This document shows, one piece after another, positions 43,524-49,637 of a DNA stretch of 64,000 bases. A program made the position numbers and the translations under genes. The stretch lies in assembly GCA_019187485.1 (NCBI GenBank), contig JABAQR010000048.1, positions 25,979 through 89,978 on the forward strand. Reading direction: 5' to 3'. Within the stretch, counting starts at the first letter, position 1; each line of letters begins with the position of its first letter. The notes under the pieces are model-generated. The model was not told where the DNA came from. It made no database searches and saw only the letters and a program-made list of their open reading frames with translations. This DNA comes from Lysobacterales bacterium (GTDB lineage Bacteria > Pseudomonadota > Gammaproteobacteria > Xanthomonadales > SZUA-5).

Positions 43524-44963
43524 ATGATCGATACCTGGACCGATCTGCTGCCGATGCTGCCCGAGCTGTTCCTGCTCGGCATGGTCAACTTGATCCTGAT
43601 CGCCGGCCTTTTCATCGACGAGCGTCGTCGCGGGCTCGTGCACTTCATCGCCACGCTGACGCTGGCGTTCGCCGCGATCCTGACGCTGCGCGATTTCGAC
43701 ATCGACGGACGGGTCGCGGTGGCCGGCGGCATGTTCATCCGCGACGGTGCCGGCGACGTCCTGAAGCTCTTCGTCTACCTGACGATGGGCATCGTCTTCG
43801 TCTACGCGAAGTTCTATCTGCGCACGCACAAGCTCTTCGTCGCCGAGTTCTACACGCTGGCACTGTTCTCGGTGCTCGGCATGTGCGTGCTGATTTCCGG
43901 CGGCAATCTGCTGACGATCTACCTCGGTCTGGAACTGATGGCGCTGTCCTCCTACGCGCTGGTCGCGCTGGACCGCGACTCGCCGGTGGCCGCGGAATCG
44001 GCGATGAAGTACTTCGTGCTCGGCGCGCTCGCCTCGGGACTGCTGCTCTACGGCATGTCCATCCTGTACGGCGTGACCGGCAGCCTCGATCTGTCCGAGA
44101 TCGCGACGCGCCTGTCTTCGGGGGAGTATCCGAAAGTGGTGCTGGCCTTTGCGGTGGTGTTCATCGTCGTCGGCATCGGCTTCAAGTTCGGCGCGGTGCC
44201 CTTCCACATGTGGGTGCCGGACGTCTACCAGGGTGCGCCGACCGCGATCACGCTGCTGCTGGCCTCGGCGCCGAAGCTGGCAGCGGTCGGCATGACCTTC
44301 CGGCTGCTGTCCGAGGGCCTCGAACCGCTGGCCCGCGACTGGTCGCAGATGCTCGGCTTTCTTGCACTGATGTCGCTGGTGGTCGGCAATTTCGCGGCGA
44401 TCGCGCAGACCAATCTGAAACGGATGCTCGCGTATTCGACGATTTCGCACGTCGGCTTCGTGCTGCTCGGCATCCTCGCCGGCAGCGACGACGGCATGGC
44501 CGCTGCGATGTTCTACGCGATCACCTACGCGCTGATGACCACCGGCGCCTTCGGCATGATCATCGCGCTGTCGAATGCGGGCTTCGAGTGCGAGCGTATC
44601 GAGGACTTCAAGGGCCTGAACCAGCGCAACCCCTGGTTCGCCTTCCTGATGTTGCTGATCCTGGCGTCGCTGGCCGGCTTCCCGCCGCTGGTCGGGTTCT
44701 TCTCCAAGCTTTACGTGTTGCAGGCCGCGATCAATGCCGGCTGGCTGTGGCTGACCGTGGTCGCGGTGGTGATGGCGGTGATCGGCGCCTACTACTATCT
44801 GCGCGTCATCAAGGTCATGTACTTCGACGAGCCCGAGCACGAACACGCGCTGCAGGCGCCCGGCGATGTGCGCGTGGTACTGGCCGCGAACGGCCTGCTG
44901 CAGCTCCTGCTGACCTTCTTCGTCGGCTCGCTGACCGCGCTCTGCGTTGCCGCCTGGCAGTAG
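43524..44963 (+). CDS. nuoN: NADH-quinone oxidoreductase subunit N
   Basis: 479 aa with FHMWVPDVYQGAPT. Last nuo gene. Confidence 0.95.
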   Translation: MIDTWTDLLPMLPELFLLGMVNLILIAGLFIDERRRGLVHFIATLTLAFAAILTLRDFDIDGRVAVAGGMFIRDGAGDVLKLFVYLTMGIVFVYAKFYLRTHKLFVAEFYTLALFSVLGMCVLISGGNLLTIYLGLELMALSSYALVALDRDSPVAAESAMKYFVLGALASGLLLYGMSILYGVTGSLDLSEIATRLSSGEYPKVVLAFAVVFIVVGIGFKFGAVPFHMWVPDVYQGAPTAITLLLASAPKLAAVGMTFRLLSEGLEPLARDWSQMLGFLALMSLVVGNFAAIAQTNLKRMLAYSTISHVGFVLLGILAGSDDGMAAAMFYAITYALMTTGAFGMIIALSNAGFECERIEDFKGLNQRNPWFAFLMLLILASLAGFPPLVGFFSKLYVLQAAINAGWLWLTVVAVVMAVIGAYYYLRVIKVMYFDEPEHEHALQAPGDVRVVLAANGLLQLLLTFFVGSLTALCVAAWQ

Positions 44964-45228
44964 CCGTTCGCACTCGAGACGGCGCCAGTCGAAGGATCCA
45001 GTCGCTCACAGTTCCCGCCGGCCCATCGCTGCGCCGATGCCGGCCGGCAGGCCAGCACGACGAGGGCCTGCGTGGGAGGGCGCACGCGCGCTTCGTCGGG
45101 AAAGATCCAAGACACTCCTTGTCGTCACCGGATGGCCTGCGCAAATCTGCCGCGAACGCTGTGGCAGCGGACTCGCACGGGCGACGGTGCAGGTGTACAT
45201 TGACCGCGCGCGGATTCTGGAGGTCGCC

Positions 45229-46323
45229 ATGAATGCCAGTTCGCCTGCCTGTGTCCTTGCCCCGCTAGCCGCGCTGTGCGCGATGATGGGCGCCGCGAGC
45301 GCCGGCGCACCTCCGGATGCCATCTTCGCCAATGGTCACGAGAGCTTGCCGATCATCGCGCCGGCGAACACCTGGACCTTCGTGCCCATCGCGGGAACGC
45401 GCTGTGGCAACAACAGTGGCACCGGCATCGGCATCAACCCGAGCAGCAGCGGCGGTGCGCGCGTGCTGCTGTTGCTGAGCGGCGGCGGCGCCTGCTGGGA
45501 CACGCTGACCTGCATTACCCTGCAGACCGCCAGCAACTTCAACGGGGGATATGGGCCTGCGCAGTTCGCCAACGATCTGCCCTCGCTGGGCAGCGGAGCT
45601 CTCGACCGCAGCTCGCCTACCAACCCCTTTCGGGACTTCCACTACGTCTTCGTGCCCTACTGCACCGGCGATCTGCATTTCGGCAGCACGCCATCCATCG
45701 ACTATGGCGGCAATGAGCGCAGTCACCTCGGCTATCACAATCTCAACGCGATCGTGGATCGCGTGATCGCAACCTTCCCGAATCCCGGGCGGGTGGTGCT
45801 CGGCGGAATCAGTGCAGGTGGTTTCGGCGCCGCGTTGAACTGGACGCGGTTTCAGCGGCTATACGGCAGCGTACGCGTGGACATGATCGACGATTCTGGG
45901 CAGTTCATGCCGGCAGCGATCGTGCCGCCGGCTAGTGCCTCCGAGCAGGCTCGATTCGCCAGCTGGAACCTCGCAAGCACGCTGCCGGCCGACTGTTCGG
46001 CATGTTTTGGCGGCGGCCTCGACAACATCTATTCCCATAACGCAAACGCCCTGCCGGGCAACCGCGGCGCCCTGCTGTCCTTCCGACCCGATCCGACGAT
46101 CGCCTCCTTCTTCCAGATCAGCACGTCCAGCTTCACGACCGGACTGAACACGATGCTGACCACGCGTTGGGATCCATTCCCGAACCGACACTACTTCATT
46201 TCCGGCAATTCCGGTCACGTACTCGCCAACAATCTGGCCCTGAGCGTGAACGGCGTCTCGCTGGAAACTTTCCTGACGCGAATGGTGAACGACGATCCGA
46301 ACTGGGCCAACGTCACACCTTGA
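45229..46323 (+). CDS. Secreted esterase-like protein (pectin-acetylesterase/Notum-like family, tentative)
   Basis: Start at MNASSPACVLAPLAALCAMMGAASAG (signal peptide). The motifs LLSGGGACWD and VPYCTGDLHFG resemble the PAE-family GGGWC / YCDG signatures. Confidence 0.55.
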   Translation: MNASSPACVLAPLAALCAMMGAASAGAPPDAIFANGHESLPIIAPANTWTFVPIAGTRCGNNSGTGIGINPSSSGGARVLLLLSGGGACWDTLTCITLQTASNFNGGYGPAQFANDLPSLGSGALDRSSPTNPFRDFHYVFVPYCTGDLHFGSTPSIDYGGNERSHLGYHNLNAIVDRVIATFPNPGRVVLGGISAGGFGAALNWTRFQRLYGSVRVDMIDDSGQFMPAAIVPPASASEQARFASWNLASTLPADCSACFGGGLDNIYSHNANALPGNRGALLSFRPDPTIASFFQISTSSFTTGLNTMLTTRWDPFPNRHYFISGNSGHVLANNLALSVNGVSLETFLTRMVNDDPNWANVTP

Positions 46324-46403: not shown

Positions 46404-46622
46404 TCACAGCCTGCCGGTCCTGCAAAAGCGGTAGCAGTTCTCCCGTTCGCGACCACAGCCCGCATGGGTGCCGCGTTCGGCGACGCATTCATTGAAGAGA
46501 TCCCAGCACAACCTCTCGCACGGCGAGCCGAAGAGATAGGAGGCGCGCGACACCTGAGGAAAGGCTGAGAGCGCCAGGCCGAGCGTGAGACCGACCACCG
46601 ATATCAGCATTTTTGAACGCAT
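46404..46622 (-). CDS. Small secreted six-cysteine peptide, paralog 3
   Basis: MRSKMLISVVGLTLGLALSAFPQVSRA | SYLFGSPCERLCWDLFNECVAERGTHAGCGRERENCYRFCRTGRL. It has the same Cys spacing and ERG..GCGRER core as the other two. The SD is weak. Confidence 0.7.
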   Translation of the reverse strand: MRSKMLISVVGLTLGLALSAFPQVSRASYLFGSPCERLCWDLFNECVAERGTHAGCGRERENCYRFCRTGRL

Positions 46623-46685
46623 GGAAGAAATCCCGGGAGTTTTGGAGGAGTTGTGGATGTTCGCAAGACGGGCGACGGTGCCCGG

Positions 46686-46898
46686 TTAACCGTTGCCGTA
46701 GGCACTACAGAGATTGAGGCATTCGCGTCGCTCGCGGCCGCAGCCGTTCTTGAGCCCGCGTTCCTGGATGCAGATGTGATACGCGAGCGTGCAAATGCCA
46801 TCGCAAGTGACGGTGTAGGCAGCCGATGGGCGCGGAATGGCAGAGATACCAAGGCCGATCAGCAGACCTGCGATGGTGAGACACAGCTTGGATTTCAT
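46686..46898 (-). CDS. Small secreted six-cysteine peptide, paralog 2
   Basis: MKSKLCLTIAGLLIGLGISAIPRPSAA | YTVTCDGICTLAYHICIQERGLKNGCGRERRECLNLCSAYGNG. An AAGGAAG SD lies upstream. Confidence 0.75.
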   Translation of the reverse strand: MKSKLCLTIAGLLIGLGISAIPRPSAAYTVTCDGICTLAYHICIQERGLKNGCGRERRECLNLCSAYGNG

Positions 46899-47115
46899 GG
46901 AGGACTTCCTTTCTTGTACGCGTGGGGGTGGAACGCTCCCGCCCGGTCGTACGGTTGCCTGATGGGCGGGAGCATGGTCGGGAGGATGAGTAGCGAACTG
47001 CGCGCCCGACCGACGCGCGGCAGTTCGGTGATCGACACCGGGCAGGAGTCCAGCGCCGCAAATCGTTGTATTCAGGTCGACGGCGAATACGCCATCGCGA
47101 GTCTGTAGACGCGCT

Positions 47116-47328
47116 CTATTCGCAGGATTCCAGGCAACTCCGCCGCTCGCGCCCGCAGCCGGCCCTCGCGCCGCGTTCGGCCACGCAAAGGTGATACCTG
47201 AGCTGACAGTCGTCCTGACAGGTCAGGAACAAGCCGGGCGAATCGAAGGCCAGCGAGGTGCGTGGCAGAAGCGAGACTGCGATACCGAGTGCGAGGCCAA
47301 GCGCGGATAGTGCAAGCTTTTGAAACAT
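47116..47328 (-). CDS. Small secreted six-cysteine peptide, paralog 1
   Basis: MFQKLALSALGLALGIAVSLLPRTSLA | FDSPGLFLTCQDDCQLRYHLCVAERGARAGCGRERRSCLESCE. An AAGGAGAG SD lies upstream, inside a relatively AT-richer leader of about 200 nt. Confidence 0.75.
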   Translation of the reverse strand: MFQKLALSALGLALGIAVSLLPRTSLAFDSPGLFLTCQDDCQLRYHLCVAERGARAGCGRERRSCLESCE

Positions 47329-47525
47329 GTCTGCTCTCCTTCAGGGGAAACCATTGGAAACACCACGAATGTCCCGCGAGGCGTGTCGCTCCCACTCCAG
47401 TCGTCGGGGCGGAGGCGAAAAAGGTTTATCGAGTACGCGTCCTCCCGGATGTGCGGGTGAACATCTTCAAATTCGCGGGCGACGGATCGCGCCGCGACCG
47501 CCAGGTGGGAGCCGCCAGCGAGTAT

Positions 47526-47954
47526 TCAGGGCGCAGAACGCGCGAGGCCGTGCGTGCTGGCCACGCCCGTCTGACCCGAGCCACCGAATAGTTCCCGATA
47601 GGCCTCCGGCTGGAAACCCCGGATCAATCGATCCGGCACGATCAGCACCGGCACACCGCGCTCTCCAAGAGCTTTGAAGGCTGCGTCGGCCGTTTCCGAC
47701 TGATCGATCGCCAATTCGCGGTACTGCACGCCGAGAGTCCGCAGACTTTCGCGCGCCTTCTGACAGAAGGGGCAGGTCGTGGTACTGAACAGCACGACGT
47801 CGGTGTCGTACTCGGCCAGCAGCCCACGGTAGTCTCGGACTTCCACCGATCGCGGTTGATTCCACTCCCGGTAGACCTGCTTGCCGCCAATGCCGGCAAG
47901 CCCGCCAACCAGCACGAACATCATCAACCACGCAATTTGCTTGATCGTCCGCAT
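47526..47954 (-). CDS. Membrane-anchored glutaredoxin/NrdH-fold protein (CPFC active site)
   Basis: Start at MRTIKQIAWLMMFVLVGGLAGIGG (one TM helix; GGAG SD upstream). The thioredoxin-fold core follows: VVLFSTTTCPFCQKARESL...GVPVLIV. Confidence 0.8.
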   Translation of the reverse strand: MRTIKQIAWLMMFVLVGGLAGIGGKQVYREWNQPRSVEVRDYRGLLAEYDTDVVLFSTTTCPFCQKARESLRTLGVQYRELAIDQSETADAAFKALGERGVPVLIVPDRLIRGFQPEAYRELFGGSGQTGVASTHGLARSAP

Positions 47955-48170: not shown

Positions 48171-49637
48171 TCAGGACAGCAGCCGTTGCAGCTTGCGCGC
48201 CTCCTCGCTGTCGGCACTGTTGGCGTGGAGTCGCTGGCAGAGGTCGCGCGCGGCTTCGATGTCGCCGTCCTCGAGGGCGGACAGGGCGAGGCGCAGGGCG
48301 AGCCTTCGGGCCGCCTCGCGGGGTTCGCCGGTGTTGAGCAGGACGTGCACGATCGGTGCAGCAGCGTGGCGTCGACCGCCGCCGAACCAGCGGCTGCCGA
48401 CGGCGAGCAGATCTTCGGTGGACAGGCGGGGCCGGTGACCCGTGGCATTCAGGTACTCTTCGAACAGCGCGATGTCATCGTCGAGTTTCGCCGATGGTTG
48501 CAGACCGCCGACCAGCAGGCGTCGCGCGGCCTCGTGGTAGGCCGTTTCCTGCGGACGATCGCGGCACGCGCGCAGGCGCAGCAGCCAGGCTTCGCGCTCC
48601 GTGGGATGCTGCTCGACGAGGCGTGTGCTGAGCTGGTGGGCGCGCGCGAACTCGAGCCGACCGAGGGCCGCTCGCGTGGGGCCGTAAAGGTCGGGCAGCG
48701 CGGATGTCTCGTGCGACTCGTCGAGCACCTCGCGACGTTCCCAGCCGAGCTTGCGGATCGTCGCGGCGACCAGCGCGCCGGCGACGATGCCGCCGGCGTG
48801 GGCGTCGAAGGCCACTTTCGCCTCCGGCAACGAGACCATCTGGTACAGCTCCCAGCCCAGCCAGACCGGCAGCAGCAGCAGCGCCGGGACGCGCACGGAG
48901 TCGAAGATCACGAAAAACCAGTAGAAAACGCGGATGCGGCGCATGCCCCAGACCACGCAGCAGGCGCCCATCAACGCGGCGATCGCGCCGGAGGCACCAA
49001 GCAGACTGCCGAAATCGCCCAGGTGGCGCACCACGCTGACCGTGCCGGCACAGAGGCCACCGAGCAGGTACACCCCGAGGAAGAGCCAGGGGCCGAGCGC
49101 GGCCTCGGTCATCAACCCGAGCAGCGCCAGCATGACCATGTTGCCGATCAAGTGCCCACCGCTGCCATGCAGGAACATCGACGAGAAGTAACGTGGGGCA
49201 CTGGGCTCATGGAACAACAGCACATGCCGGGGCGTGAAGGCGCGCAGCAACCTGCGCTCGAATTCCGCGCGCTGCACGCGCACCGACGTGGCGCGCGGGT
49301 TGTCGCGGTCGTGCAGCGGCGTCCGCGAGATGCGCGTCGCGAAGGTTGGATCGATCGCCTGTACCTGCACCGCCAGTTGCGCCTGTGCCGGCGGCGGCAG
49401 TGATTGCAGTGTCGTGGCCAGGTCCGGACGCTCGCGCGAAAGCAGATGTTCCCGCAACGCGTCCAGTTCGAGTTCGAGCAGTCCACTGCGCCGATAGAAA
49501 TCGGCGGCCTCGGCGAGTGCGCGCTCGTCGCGTGCCTGCGGACCGATGTAGACCAGCACGTTGACGGCGATCAGCAGCGCCGTCACCCACGGAAAATTCG
49601 CCAGCGTCGGCTTGCGATGGAGCGGGATGATCAGCAT
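48171..49637 (-). CDS. Rhomboid-family intramembrane serine protease with a C-terminal helical-repeat domain
   Basis: Motifs FLHGSGGHLIGNM (HxxxN), GASGAIAALMG (GxSG, catalytic Ser) and AHAGGIVAG (catalytic His). 488 aa. A GGGAGG SD sits in the 21-nt gap after prpC. Confidence 0.85.
   Translation of the reverse strand: MLIIPLHRKPTLANFPWVTALLIAVNVLVYIGPQARDERALAEAADFYRRSGLLELELDALREHLLSRERPDLATTLQSLPPPAQAQLAVQVQAIDPTFATRISRTPLHDRDNPRATSVRVQRAEFERRLLRAFTPRHVLLFHEPSAPRYFSSMFLHGSGGHLIGNMVMLALLGLMTEAALGPWLFLGVYLLGGLCAGTVSVVRHLGDFGSLLGASGAIAALMGACCVVWGMRRIRVFYWFFVIFDSVRVPALLLLPVWLGWELYQMVSLPEAKVAFDAHAGGIVAGALVAATIRKLGWERREVLDESHETSALPDLYGPTRAALGRLEFARAHQLSTRLVEQHPTEREAWLLRLRACRDRPQETAYHEAARRLLVGGLQPSAKLDDDIALFEEYLNATGHRPRLSTEDLLAVGSRWFGGGRRHAAAPIVHVLLNTGEPREAARRLALRLALSALEDGDIEAARDLCQRLHANSADSEEARKLQRLLS

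Follow-up and report, generated by a model that had tools for sequence, protein, structure and literature searches.

Tandem genes for six-cysteine peptides and a linked glutaredoxin-like gene in a Lysobacterales bacterium

The window analysed here is a stretch of 64,000 nucleotides (nt) from a Lysobacterales bacterium (GenBank assembly GCA_019187485.1, contig JABAQR010000048.1, positions 25,979 to 89,978). It carries three small same-strand genes, named pep1, pep2 and pep3, each encoding a precursor of 70 to 72 amino acids (aa) with a signal-like N-terminus and six regularly spaced cysteines (Cys). What are these peptides, how would they acquire their structure, and where would they act? The strongest functional clue is a gene that an earlier sequence-only reading of this DNA did not mention, lying directly upstream of pep3 on the same strand and encoding a glutaredoxin-like (Grx-like) thiol-disulfide oxidoreductase. 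On balance, the cassette is read here, with a modest preference, as an exported oxidoreductase of the Grx/NrdH fold accompanied by three old peptide paralogues, the products of which would be stapled hairpins folded by this dedicated enzyme and then released. The conserved and putatively exported Grx-like partner, together with a wider pattern of six-, eight- and four-Cys peptides beside such enzymes, is the newer and more interesting part of the findings.

Linkage of the glutaredoxin-like gene to genes for Cys-rich peptides

From one to three six-Cys peptide genes adjoin the Grx-like gene in all ten distinct close-family loci that leave room for them (Table 1). Nine of these loci, with the genes on the same strand, are listed in the table; the tenth is an inferred locus. 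It is represented by a pep2-type peptide (P0004) and a Grx-like protein 79% identical to that of the window (P0019), the longest contig of each having 1,655 bases, so that both most likely share a single contig. Another locus (L012) was left out of the count as its sequence ends 134 nt past the Grx gene. Only the Grx gene and the peptide genes are conserved from locus to locus. Indeed, the flanking genes code for a rhomboid-TPR protein and a pectin-acetylesterase-like (PAE-like) esterase in the window, and elsewhere for an extracytoplasmic function (ECF) sigma factor, a DUF4331 protein, a pseudouridine synthase or a lipase. The peptides encoded upstream of the Grx gene form a divergent subfamily called type B (PLPDPxC...), with identical Cys spacing; hhalign shows it to be homologous to the window type (97.4%, E 1e-11). 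When the Grx-to-peptide spacers of five loci are aligned, the Shine-Dalgarno (SD) motif AAGGAG is the only conserved element.

The number of peptide genes is not fixed. A gene for a 160-aa SRPBCC protein (Polyketide_cyc2) follows the cassette in L001, L003 and L006, and three, two and zero type-A peptide genes, respectively, stand between it and the Grx gene, which points to gain and loss of array members. The SRPBCC gene was rejected as a part of the cassette because it is absent from the window and other loci and reflects local synteny only. The rhomboid-TPR protein was likewise rejected as a processing partner, being absent from the other loci.

In the partner protein itself, a hydrophobic helix at the N-terminus is joined by a conserved linker to a glutaredoxin domain, the active site of which is CPFC. 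It matches Pfam PF00462 with an E-value of 5.8e-14 (52.5 bits for a gathering cut-off of 22.9), whereas its scores lie below the NCBIfam cut-offs for NrdH (TIGR02194, 30.4 vs 85.75 bits), YruB (TIGR02196, 58.3 vs 88.55) and Grx3 (TIGR02181, 33.8 vs 90). It thus belongs to the glutaredoxin superfamily and to no curated subfamily. AlphaFold2 predicts a helix at residues 2-31 followed by a Grx fold, with a mean predicted local distance difference test score (pLDDT) of 80.7, and the best Foldseek matches of this model are Grx 3ic4 and NrdH 4fiw/1h75 (target template-modelling score 0.82-0.85, probability 1.00). Within the family, the active site is invariably CPFC or CPYC and the VP motif with the cis-proline is present. 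This family matches the peptides in rarity, with only nine close clusters among 5.8 billion.

The N-terminal signal-anchor and its LAGIGGKQ motif are also conserved. The tail that precedes the helix contains an invariant Lys, one to three Lys or Arg residues and no acidic residue, and such a flank favours an N-in/C-out topology, with the catalytic domain on the periplasmic side. It is even conceivable that a signal peptidase cuts at the conserved LAGIGG|K. To our knowledge, no natural exported protein with the Grx fold has been described.

More distant relatives of the enzyme extend the pattern. Scanned with the Grx-like alignment, metagenomes gave 12 full-length relatives (31-41% identity, N-terminal helix included). 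No six-Cys peptide was found near these 12 genes, and a different small exported Cys-rich gene directly adjoins nine of them. In four loci (L016, L018, L024 and L027), it lies just downstream and encodes an eight-Cys peptide with the pattern C-x3-C-x6-C-x3-C-x9/10-C-x3-C-x6-C-x3-C, that is, the mirror design with one extra Cys pair. By hhalign (92.4%, E 5e-7), this peptide and the six-Cys family are homologous, and it is probably a four-disulfide helical hairpin. In five other loci (L019, L020, L022, L025 and L026), the gene lies just upstream and encodes a Gly-rich four-Cys peptide, in which a signal peptide precedes PPGGGGGHVC-x12-C-x8-CC-xxYGL. Neither the eight-Cys nor the four-Cys peptide has a Pfam match. 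Across the three scaffolds, the mature Cys count is always even (4, 6 or 8), which fits full disulfide pairing. The association of a conserved enzyme with swappable, multi-copy, exported peptides of even Cys count is the strongest argument that the Cys are disulfide-bonded and that the Grx-like protein is their dedicated catalyst.

One type-B peptide gene was observed in another context. P0032, from the same organism lineage, is encoded at positions 6001-6210 of L013/L014/L015 (GCA_021404805.1, GCA_045864915.1, GCA_021463565.1), 65 nt downstream of the gene for a 914-aa Trans_reg_C + TPR (ToxR/CadC-like) regulator, with leuS following. A tie of the type-B peptides to the ToxR-like regulator, suggested by L013, was rejected as L010 does not reproduce it.

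The peptide family, its predicted fold and its surroundings

The sequence-only reading had described three same-strand open reading frames (ORFs) sharing a six-Cys spacing, a conserved core and AxA-type cleavage sites, and all of these are present. The three precursors open with M-x-[SQ]-K, continue with 15-18 hydrophobic residues and reach a small-x-small site. The spacing C-x3-C-x6-C-x9-C-x6-C-x3-C and the core (V/I)xERGxxxGCGRER are found in pep1, pep2 and pep3 alike, although their mutual identity is only 38-49%. The mature products weigh about 4.8-5.3 kDa, that of pep1 ending with RFCRTGRL. For pep1, NCBI calls a 68-aa form from 46610, whereas the family alignment favours the MRSK start. 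The SD motifs that had been noticed for two of the copies were found again, AAGGAG before pep3 and AAGGAAG before pep2, and the sequence upstream of pep1 contains none.

Searched in six-frame translations of the window and of all fetched loci (293,769 bases), the strict Cys pattern gives 22 matches, three of them in the window, where they are pep1-3 only. As all 22 are family members, the Cys scaffold of pep1-3 is not due to chance. Judged by their sequences, pep1-3 are real genes under selection, the pairwise ratio of nonsynonymous to synonymous substitution rates (dN/dS) among the peptide genes being 0.18-0.54. The pep1 gene product is 56-65% identical to its orthologues in L002, L008 and L001 (dN/dS 0.25-0.38) and only 38-44% identical to its paralogues pep2 and pep3 in the window, and the nearest relative of pep2 is L003a (59% identity). 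Because pep1 is nearer to genes of other organisms than to its own paralogues, the paralogues predate the divergence of these organisms, in agreement with the earlier proposal that they are old and maintained.

The family is rare. Only about 20 relatives were found among 5.8 billion protein clusters and by an exhaustive hidden Markov model search of 1.84 billion representatives, nearly all from high-GC metagenome contigs or from metagenome-assembled genomes (MAGs) of Xanthomonadales. Neither the six Cys nor their spacing varies among these homologues; the loss of the Cys pattern in orthologues, which the sequence-only reading had named as an observation that would speak against it, does not occur in them. 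The signal-peptide architecture is kept too, with M-[KRQ]-S-[KR], 15-18 hydrophobic residues and a small-x-small site. A protein identical to pep3 (P0001) is present on 64 public contigs and pep2 (P0002) on 61, and the source names of the identical proteins are those of Xanthomonadales/Lysobacterales MAGs (AMXMBFR25, PRO6).

No named family accounts for these peptides, as had been supposed. Scans of pep1-3 against Pfam (E <= 1), NCBIfam and PADLOC gave no match, and a PDB sequence search with the mature-peptide profile returned a chance match only (E 0.51). Scans of the GTDB representatives (185,579 species) with the peptide pattern and with the Grx N-terminal pattern, both narrow, gave no relative. 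In a plasmid collection, there was no match to the peptides, and the partner query gave only ordinary cytoplasmic Grx. No description of the peptide family was found in the literature on bacterial hairpinins, periplasmic glutaredoxins and Grx-linked Cys-rich peptides. The six-Cys peptides are thus a real, rare, unnamed and uncharacterised family. Their reading as lipoproteins was rejected, since pep1-3 have no Cys at the cleavage site and lack the lipobox [LVI][ASTVI][GAS]C; LGAC does occur in a type-B peptide of L003, but in the L006 orthologue of this peptide it is replaced by LGAS.

Two remote sequences were noticed beside the family. P0014, on a 2.3-kb Logan contig (SRR26290402), is a distant homologue with six Cys, a long acidic linker and a 45-aa domain that contains 12 His (HRHC..RHC..GHHHGC..RCHRHHHH). 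Its richness in His suggests that one branch or more of the family may bind metal, and this short contig carries no Grx gene. P0011 (RCI17128.1) is a 250-aa protein of the fungus Ophiocordyceps polyrhachis-furcata with a signal peptide, a hydrophobic tail resembling a glycosylphosphatidylinositol (GPI) anchor signal and three repeats of C-x3-C-x6-C-x10-C-x6-C-x3-C. The bacterial mature-peptide profile matches it with an E-value of 1.9e-6, and the likeness may be due to homology or to convergence.

The helix-turn-helix hairpin proposed from the letters alone is also what AlphaFold2 predicts. From an alignment of eight mature sequences, a helix at residues 9-24, a five-residue loop G-x-x-x-G and a helix at residues 30-41 are modelled with a pLDDT of 89.9, and the structural interpretation of the sequence-only reading holds. 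On the helical wheel, the Cys of helix 1, at i, i+4 and i+11, stand at 0, 40 and 20 degrees, and those of helix 2, at i, i+7 and i+11, at 0, -20 and 20 degrees, hence one Cys stripe per helix. In an antiparallel hairpin, the two stripes would face each other, and from this geometry and the even Cys count the disulfides are predicted to be C1-C6, C2-C5 and C3-C4. The mirrored ERG and GRE beside the loop plausibly provide Gly caps and cross-helix Glu-Arg salt bridges. A Foldseek search of the hairpin model against the PDB and BFVD returned nothing below E 0.8, as expected for a hairpin of 42 residues.

The surroundings of the cassette are those of housekeeping genes, for the window neighbours encode a rhomboid protease, citrate synthase, pyroglutamyl peptidase, the PAE-like esterase and NuoLMN. 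The cassette (46404-47954) has a guanine-plus-cytosine (GC) content of 58-63% and a GC content at third codon positions (GC3) of 0.69-0.75, vs 67.4% GC for the window and a GC3 of 0.84 for the rhomboid gene. Such a composition may mean that the cassette was inserted between the PAE-like and rhomboid genes by horizontal transfer. The AT-richer leader of about 200 nt mentioned in the sequence-only reading corresponds to the 197-nt spacer between the Grx gene and pep3, which has 62% GC vs 67% for the window, but this is no peculiarity of the leader, the whole cassette being lower in GC. The hairpin claimed at 46994-47027 does appear in the minimum free energy (MFE) fold of the spacer between pep3 and pep2 (46899-47115, minus strand), which reaches -86.6 kcal/mol (z -2.47) and includes three stem-loops. 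Two of them, strong and GC-rich, have no counterpart in the other intergenic gaps and might be a processing, attenuation or repetitive extragenic palindromic (REP)-like element. Rfam, promoter and terminator scans of the locus gave nothing, and these stem-loops were not called as a terminator. On the other side, a spacer of about 80 nt and 77.5% GC lies between the stop codons of pep1 and of the PAE-like gene. The listed 458-aa PAE-like ORF, with a TTG start, overlaps the end of nuoN, and its true start is probably an internal Met before the signal peptide (MNASSPACVLAPLAAL...).

Table 1. Coordinates and gene content of the window cassette, of its surroundings and of related loci
Feature	Position	Strand	Description
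pep3	47116..47328	minus	70-aa precursor, predicted cleavage SLA|F, 43-aa six-Cys mature peptide
pep2	46686..46898	minus	70-aa precursor, predicted cleavage SAA|Y, 43-aa six-Cys mature peptide
pep1	46404..46622	minus	72-aa precursor, predicted cleavage SRA|S, 45-aa six-Cys mature peptide
Grx-like CPFC thiol-disulfide oxidoreductase (P0017)	47526..47954	minus	142 aa; PF00462; exported or membrane-anchored (predicted)
SD AAGGAG	47336..47341	minus	7 nt before pep3 ATG
SD-like AAGGAAG	46905..46911	minus	6 nt before pep2 ATG
GC-rich stem-loops without U-tract	46994-47027 and 46936-46972 (span 46936..47027)	minus	RNA fold
Rhomboid-family intramembrane protease	48171-49637	minus	488 aa, C-terminal TPR-like region; directly upstream of cassette
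PAE-like protein	44947-46323	plus	PF03283, secreted; converges on pep1
Window			3 six-Cys peptide genes downstream of Grx-like gene
L001			3 six-Cys peptide genes downstream of Grx-like gene
L002			2 six-Cys peptide genes downstream of Grx-like gene
L003			1 six-Cys peptide gene upstream, 2 downstream of Grx-like gene
L004			1 six-Cys peptide gene downstream of Grx-like gene
L005			1 six-Cys peptide gene upstream, 1 downstream of Grx-like gene
L006/7			1 six-Cys peptide gene upstream of Grx-like gene
L008/9			1 six-Cys peptide gene downstream of Grx-like gene
L010/11			1 six-Cys peptide gene upstream of Grx-like gene
SRPBCC gene	L001 8754-9236; L003 2075-2557; L006 1376-1858		after cassette
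8-Cys peptide	L016 3387-3680; L018 943-1272; L024 3508-3735; L027 3478-3741		downstream of distant Grx-like gene
4-Cys peptide	L019 2606-2890; L020 2597-2884; L022 368-571; L025 1260-1499; L026 445-732		upstream of distant Grx-like gene

Related systems and rival explanations

An oxidoreductase gene linked to the gene of a Cys-stapled secreted peptide is an already known kind of arrangement. The window peptides resemble alpha-hairpinins, the E. coli toxin STb and glycocins, and belong to none of them. Alpha-hairpinins such as EcAMP1 and the six-Cys Nigella sativa peptide (PDB 2NB2) share with them a short helix-loop-helix, which is predicted for pep1-3 by AlphaFold2, Cys one helical turn apart and nested disulfides, which are predicted for pep1-3 from geometry. 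The four-Cys alpha-hairpinins are defined by CX3C-X4-20-CX3C, and a six-Cys class by CX3CX3C-X4-20-CX3CX3C (PMC11591084). In pep1-3, the gap between C2 and C5 is of 23 residues and contains two more Cys. Furthermore, unlike alpha-hairpinins, the window peptides are bacterial, have their own Sec signal per gene, are not cationic and have a linked oxidoreductase gene. In comparison with the CHCH twin-Cx9C fold, the spacings within the helices are x3 and x6, x9 being the loop, and Pfam gives no CHCH match. Both analogies drawn in the sequence-only reading are therefore retained as descriptions of the fold only, since the defining motifs of both are absent.

The resemblance to STb (PF09075) is architectural only. 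Like the window peptides, STb comes from a Gram-negative bacterium, as a prepeptide of about 70 aa with a Sec signal and a mature part of about 45-48 aa, with nested disulfides (predicted for the window peptides) and no cluster-encoded exporter. Indeed, its 71-aa prepeptide gives a 48-aa toxin, the C10-C48 and C21-C36 bonds of which are formed in the periplasm before exit via TolC (PMC6356903). STb differs by having two disulfides with another spacing, by relying on the general DsbA and by being plasmid- or transposon-borne in enteric pathogens, and pep1-3 have no match to PF09075, for which an STb positive control gives an E-value of 3.8e-38. Glycocins (sublancin, glycocin F, thermoglycocin) are bacterial helical hairpins with nested disulfides, and their clusters encode their own dedicated thioredoxin-like enzymes (PMC12457901), whereas the enzyme of the cassette has the Grx/NrdH fold. 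Glycocins are made by Gram-positive hosts, and their production requires S/O-glycosylation, a SunS-type glycosyltransferase and the removal of the leader by a C39 peptidase-ABC transporter. Among the window neighbours, there is no SunS-type glycosyltransferase and no C39-peptidase ABC transporter, and the leaders are Sec signals without a double-Gly/GK site. In the case of pediocin PA-1, a putative thiol-disulfide oxidoreductase encoded beside the gene of this small secreted disulfide peptide, PedC, improves its potency (PMC4919988); the operon is, however, that of a Gram-positive host and includes an ABC transporter and an immunity gene, and the peptide has an unrelated fold, a beta-sheet plus helix.

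The partner protein shares with NrdH-redoxins and glutaredoxins the Grx fold, the CPxC site and the cis-proline, and its RGFQPE recalls the WSGFRP of NrdH. Unlike the known NrdH and Grx proteins, which are soluble proteins of the cytoplasm, the partner has an N-terminal signal-anchor and about 25 extra residues. The eight-Cys peptides beside its distant homologues resemble the animal toxin neurotoxin B-IV of Cerebratulus (PF07822), a helical hairpin with four disulfides; the match of PF07822 to a type-B peptide is not significant (E 0.25). As for the proposed function, an exported Grx3 supports DsbB-independent disulfide formation in the periplasm (PMC12453122).

From these elements, the following course may be drawn. 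Each precursor would leave the cytoplasm through Sec and lose its signal peptide to signal peptidase I at its AxA-type site. The product of 43-45 aa would fold to an antiparallel helix-loop-helix, with the three nested disulfides joining the two helices and the mirrored ERG...GCGRE giving helix caps and, probably, salt bridges at the turn. The CPFC domain of the Grx-like protein, facing the periplasm, would act as the dedicated oxidase or isomerase of the closely spaced peptide Cys, a role suggested by the strict gene linkage. The stapled, protease-resistant hairpins would then act outside the cytoplasm, most likely as released effectors of antagonism or signalling, and this last step is the least supported. 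The copy number, which varies from 0 to 3, and the swapping of scaffolds beside a conserved enzyme suggest diversifying released effectors. Several observations weigh against this course. The mature peptides of the family, of 4.5-5.3 kDa, have a net charge of -2 to +2 and are not cationic, unlike most antimicrobial hairpins, and no exporter, immunity or modification gene was found near the peptide genes. Together with the housekeeping context, this argues against a classical bacteriocin, and the reading of the peptides as bacteriocins, toxins or signals, raised in the sequence-only reading, finds no direct support. Nor do the neighbouring genes supply a redox partner, either acceptor or donor of electrons, for an exported Grx. 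The 15 residues that follow the hydrophobic helix of the Grx-like protein contain one to three Lys or Arg and zero to two Asp or Glu, for a net charge of about +1, which makes the N-in/C-out topology less certain. Three of the 12 distant Grx loci have no peptide gene, two of them (L017, L021) being cut close to the Grx gene, and in the third (L023) no peptide ORF was called by the filter though there is room. Finally, P0032 is encoded far from any Grx gene, so that the linkage is not obligatory. The wider proposal, that an unrecognised class of exported Grx/NrdH-fold proteins folds interchangeable six-, eight- and four-Cys Sec-exported peptides in Gram-negative bacteria, with hyperstable hairpins released as effectors, is accordingly put forward as tentative.

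Most rival explanations keep the peptides as genuine products and differ about the place of action or the state of the Cys. The stapled hairpins could remain in the envelope as periplasmic or outer-membrane factors, chaperone-like, protease-inhibitory or envelope-stabilising, instead of being released. A Sec signal alone leads to the periplasm only, there is no dedicated secretion gene among nuoLMN, citrate synthase and rhomboid genes, the peptides are neutral, and the middle residue of their conserved turn loop RG-L-K/R-A-G is often basic, a comparable basic loop residue being carried by the helical-hairpin trypsin inhibitors VhTI and BWI-2c. Yet this residue can also be His or Asn, STb shows that exit through TolC is possible for such peptides, and variation in copy number and scaffold is more typical of diversifying secreted products; residence in the envelope is thus rather unlikely, though the most substantial of the alternatives. 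In another explanation, the peptides would be periplasmic metal-binding or thiol buffers with reduced Cys, perhaps dimeric four-helix bundles, that bind Cu(I) or soft metals or scavenge oxidants and are kept reduced by the Grx. The three Cys lining one face of each helix, the very His-rich distant homologue P0014, the near-neutral charge without an exporter, which fits periplasmic residence, and the CPYC/CPFC site, a classical reducing Grx motif, all speak for it. This explanation is nonetheless judged distinctly unlikely, given that the Cys count stays even over three scaffolds, that His is rare in the core family, that the periplasm is oxidising with no DsbD/CcdA-like pathway or metal-resistance gene linked in any locus, and that Pfam gave no match to its copper-storage or metallothionein families.

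The enzyme could also be cytoplasm-facing or functionally unrelated to the peptides, which would then be ordinary DsbA substrates, the linkage reflecting co-regulation or shared ancestry. This agrees with the basic residues after the hydrophobic helix, with the location of P0032 and with the fact that DsbA alone is enough for STa and STb. It is very improbable, however, because the linkage holds over 31-100% Grx identity while the flanks and even the scaffold change, which is hard to understand without functional coupling, and because the N-terminal tail has its invariant Lys and no acidic residue. As for the idea that pep1-3 are chance open frames, GC-rich DNA does yield many spurious ORFs, several of which overlap this region on both strands, and pep1 lacks an SD motif, but a dN/dS below 0.55, the conservation of Cys and signal peptide in at least ten loci and the zero background matches to the Cys pattern in the six-frame scan refute it and leave it next to no probability. 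The preferred explanation remains a dedicated exported foldase with stapled hairpins as its substrates.

Meaning of the cassette

If this explanation is true, the cassette would be a genetically minimal bacterial route to triply or quadruply stapled helical hairpins, a scaffold for which plants, animal toxins and Gram-positive glycocins have been the main examples so far. Its enzyme would be the first natural extracytoplasmic folding catalyst with a glutaredoxin fold, only Grx3 engineered for export in E. coli having served in this way so far, and enzyme and precursors together would form a new kind of minimal "enzyme plus precursor" cassette for a peptide product. Scaffolds of 4.5-5.3 kDa that combine small size and symmetry with genetic encoding, foldase included, would be attractive for peptide engineering. 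The producer is frequent in metagenomes of anammox and wastewater reactors, as indicated by the identical protein on so many public contigs, so that the expression and ecology of these peptides may be tested with existing community data.

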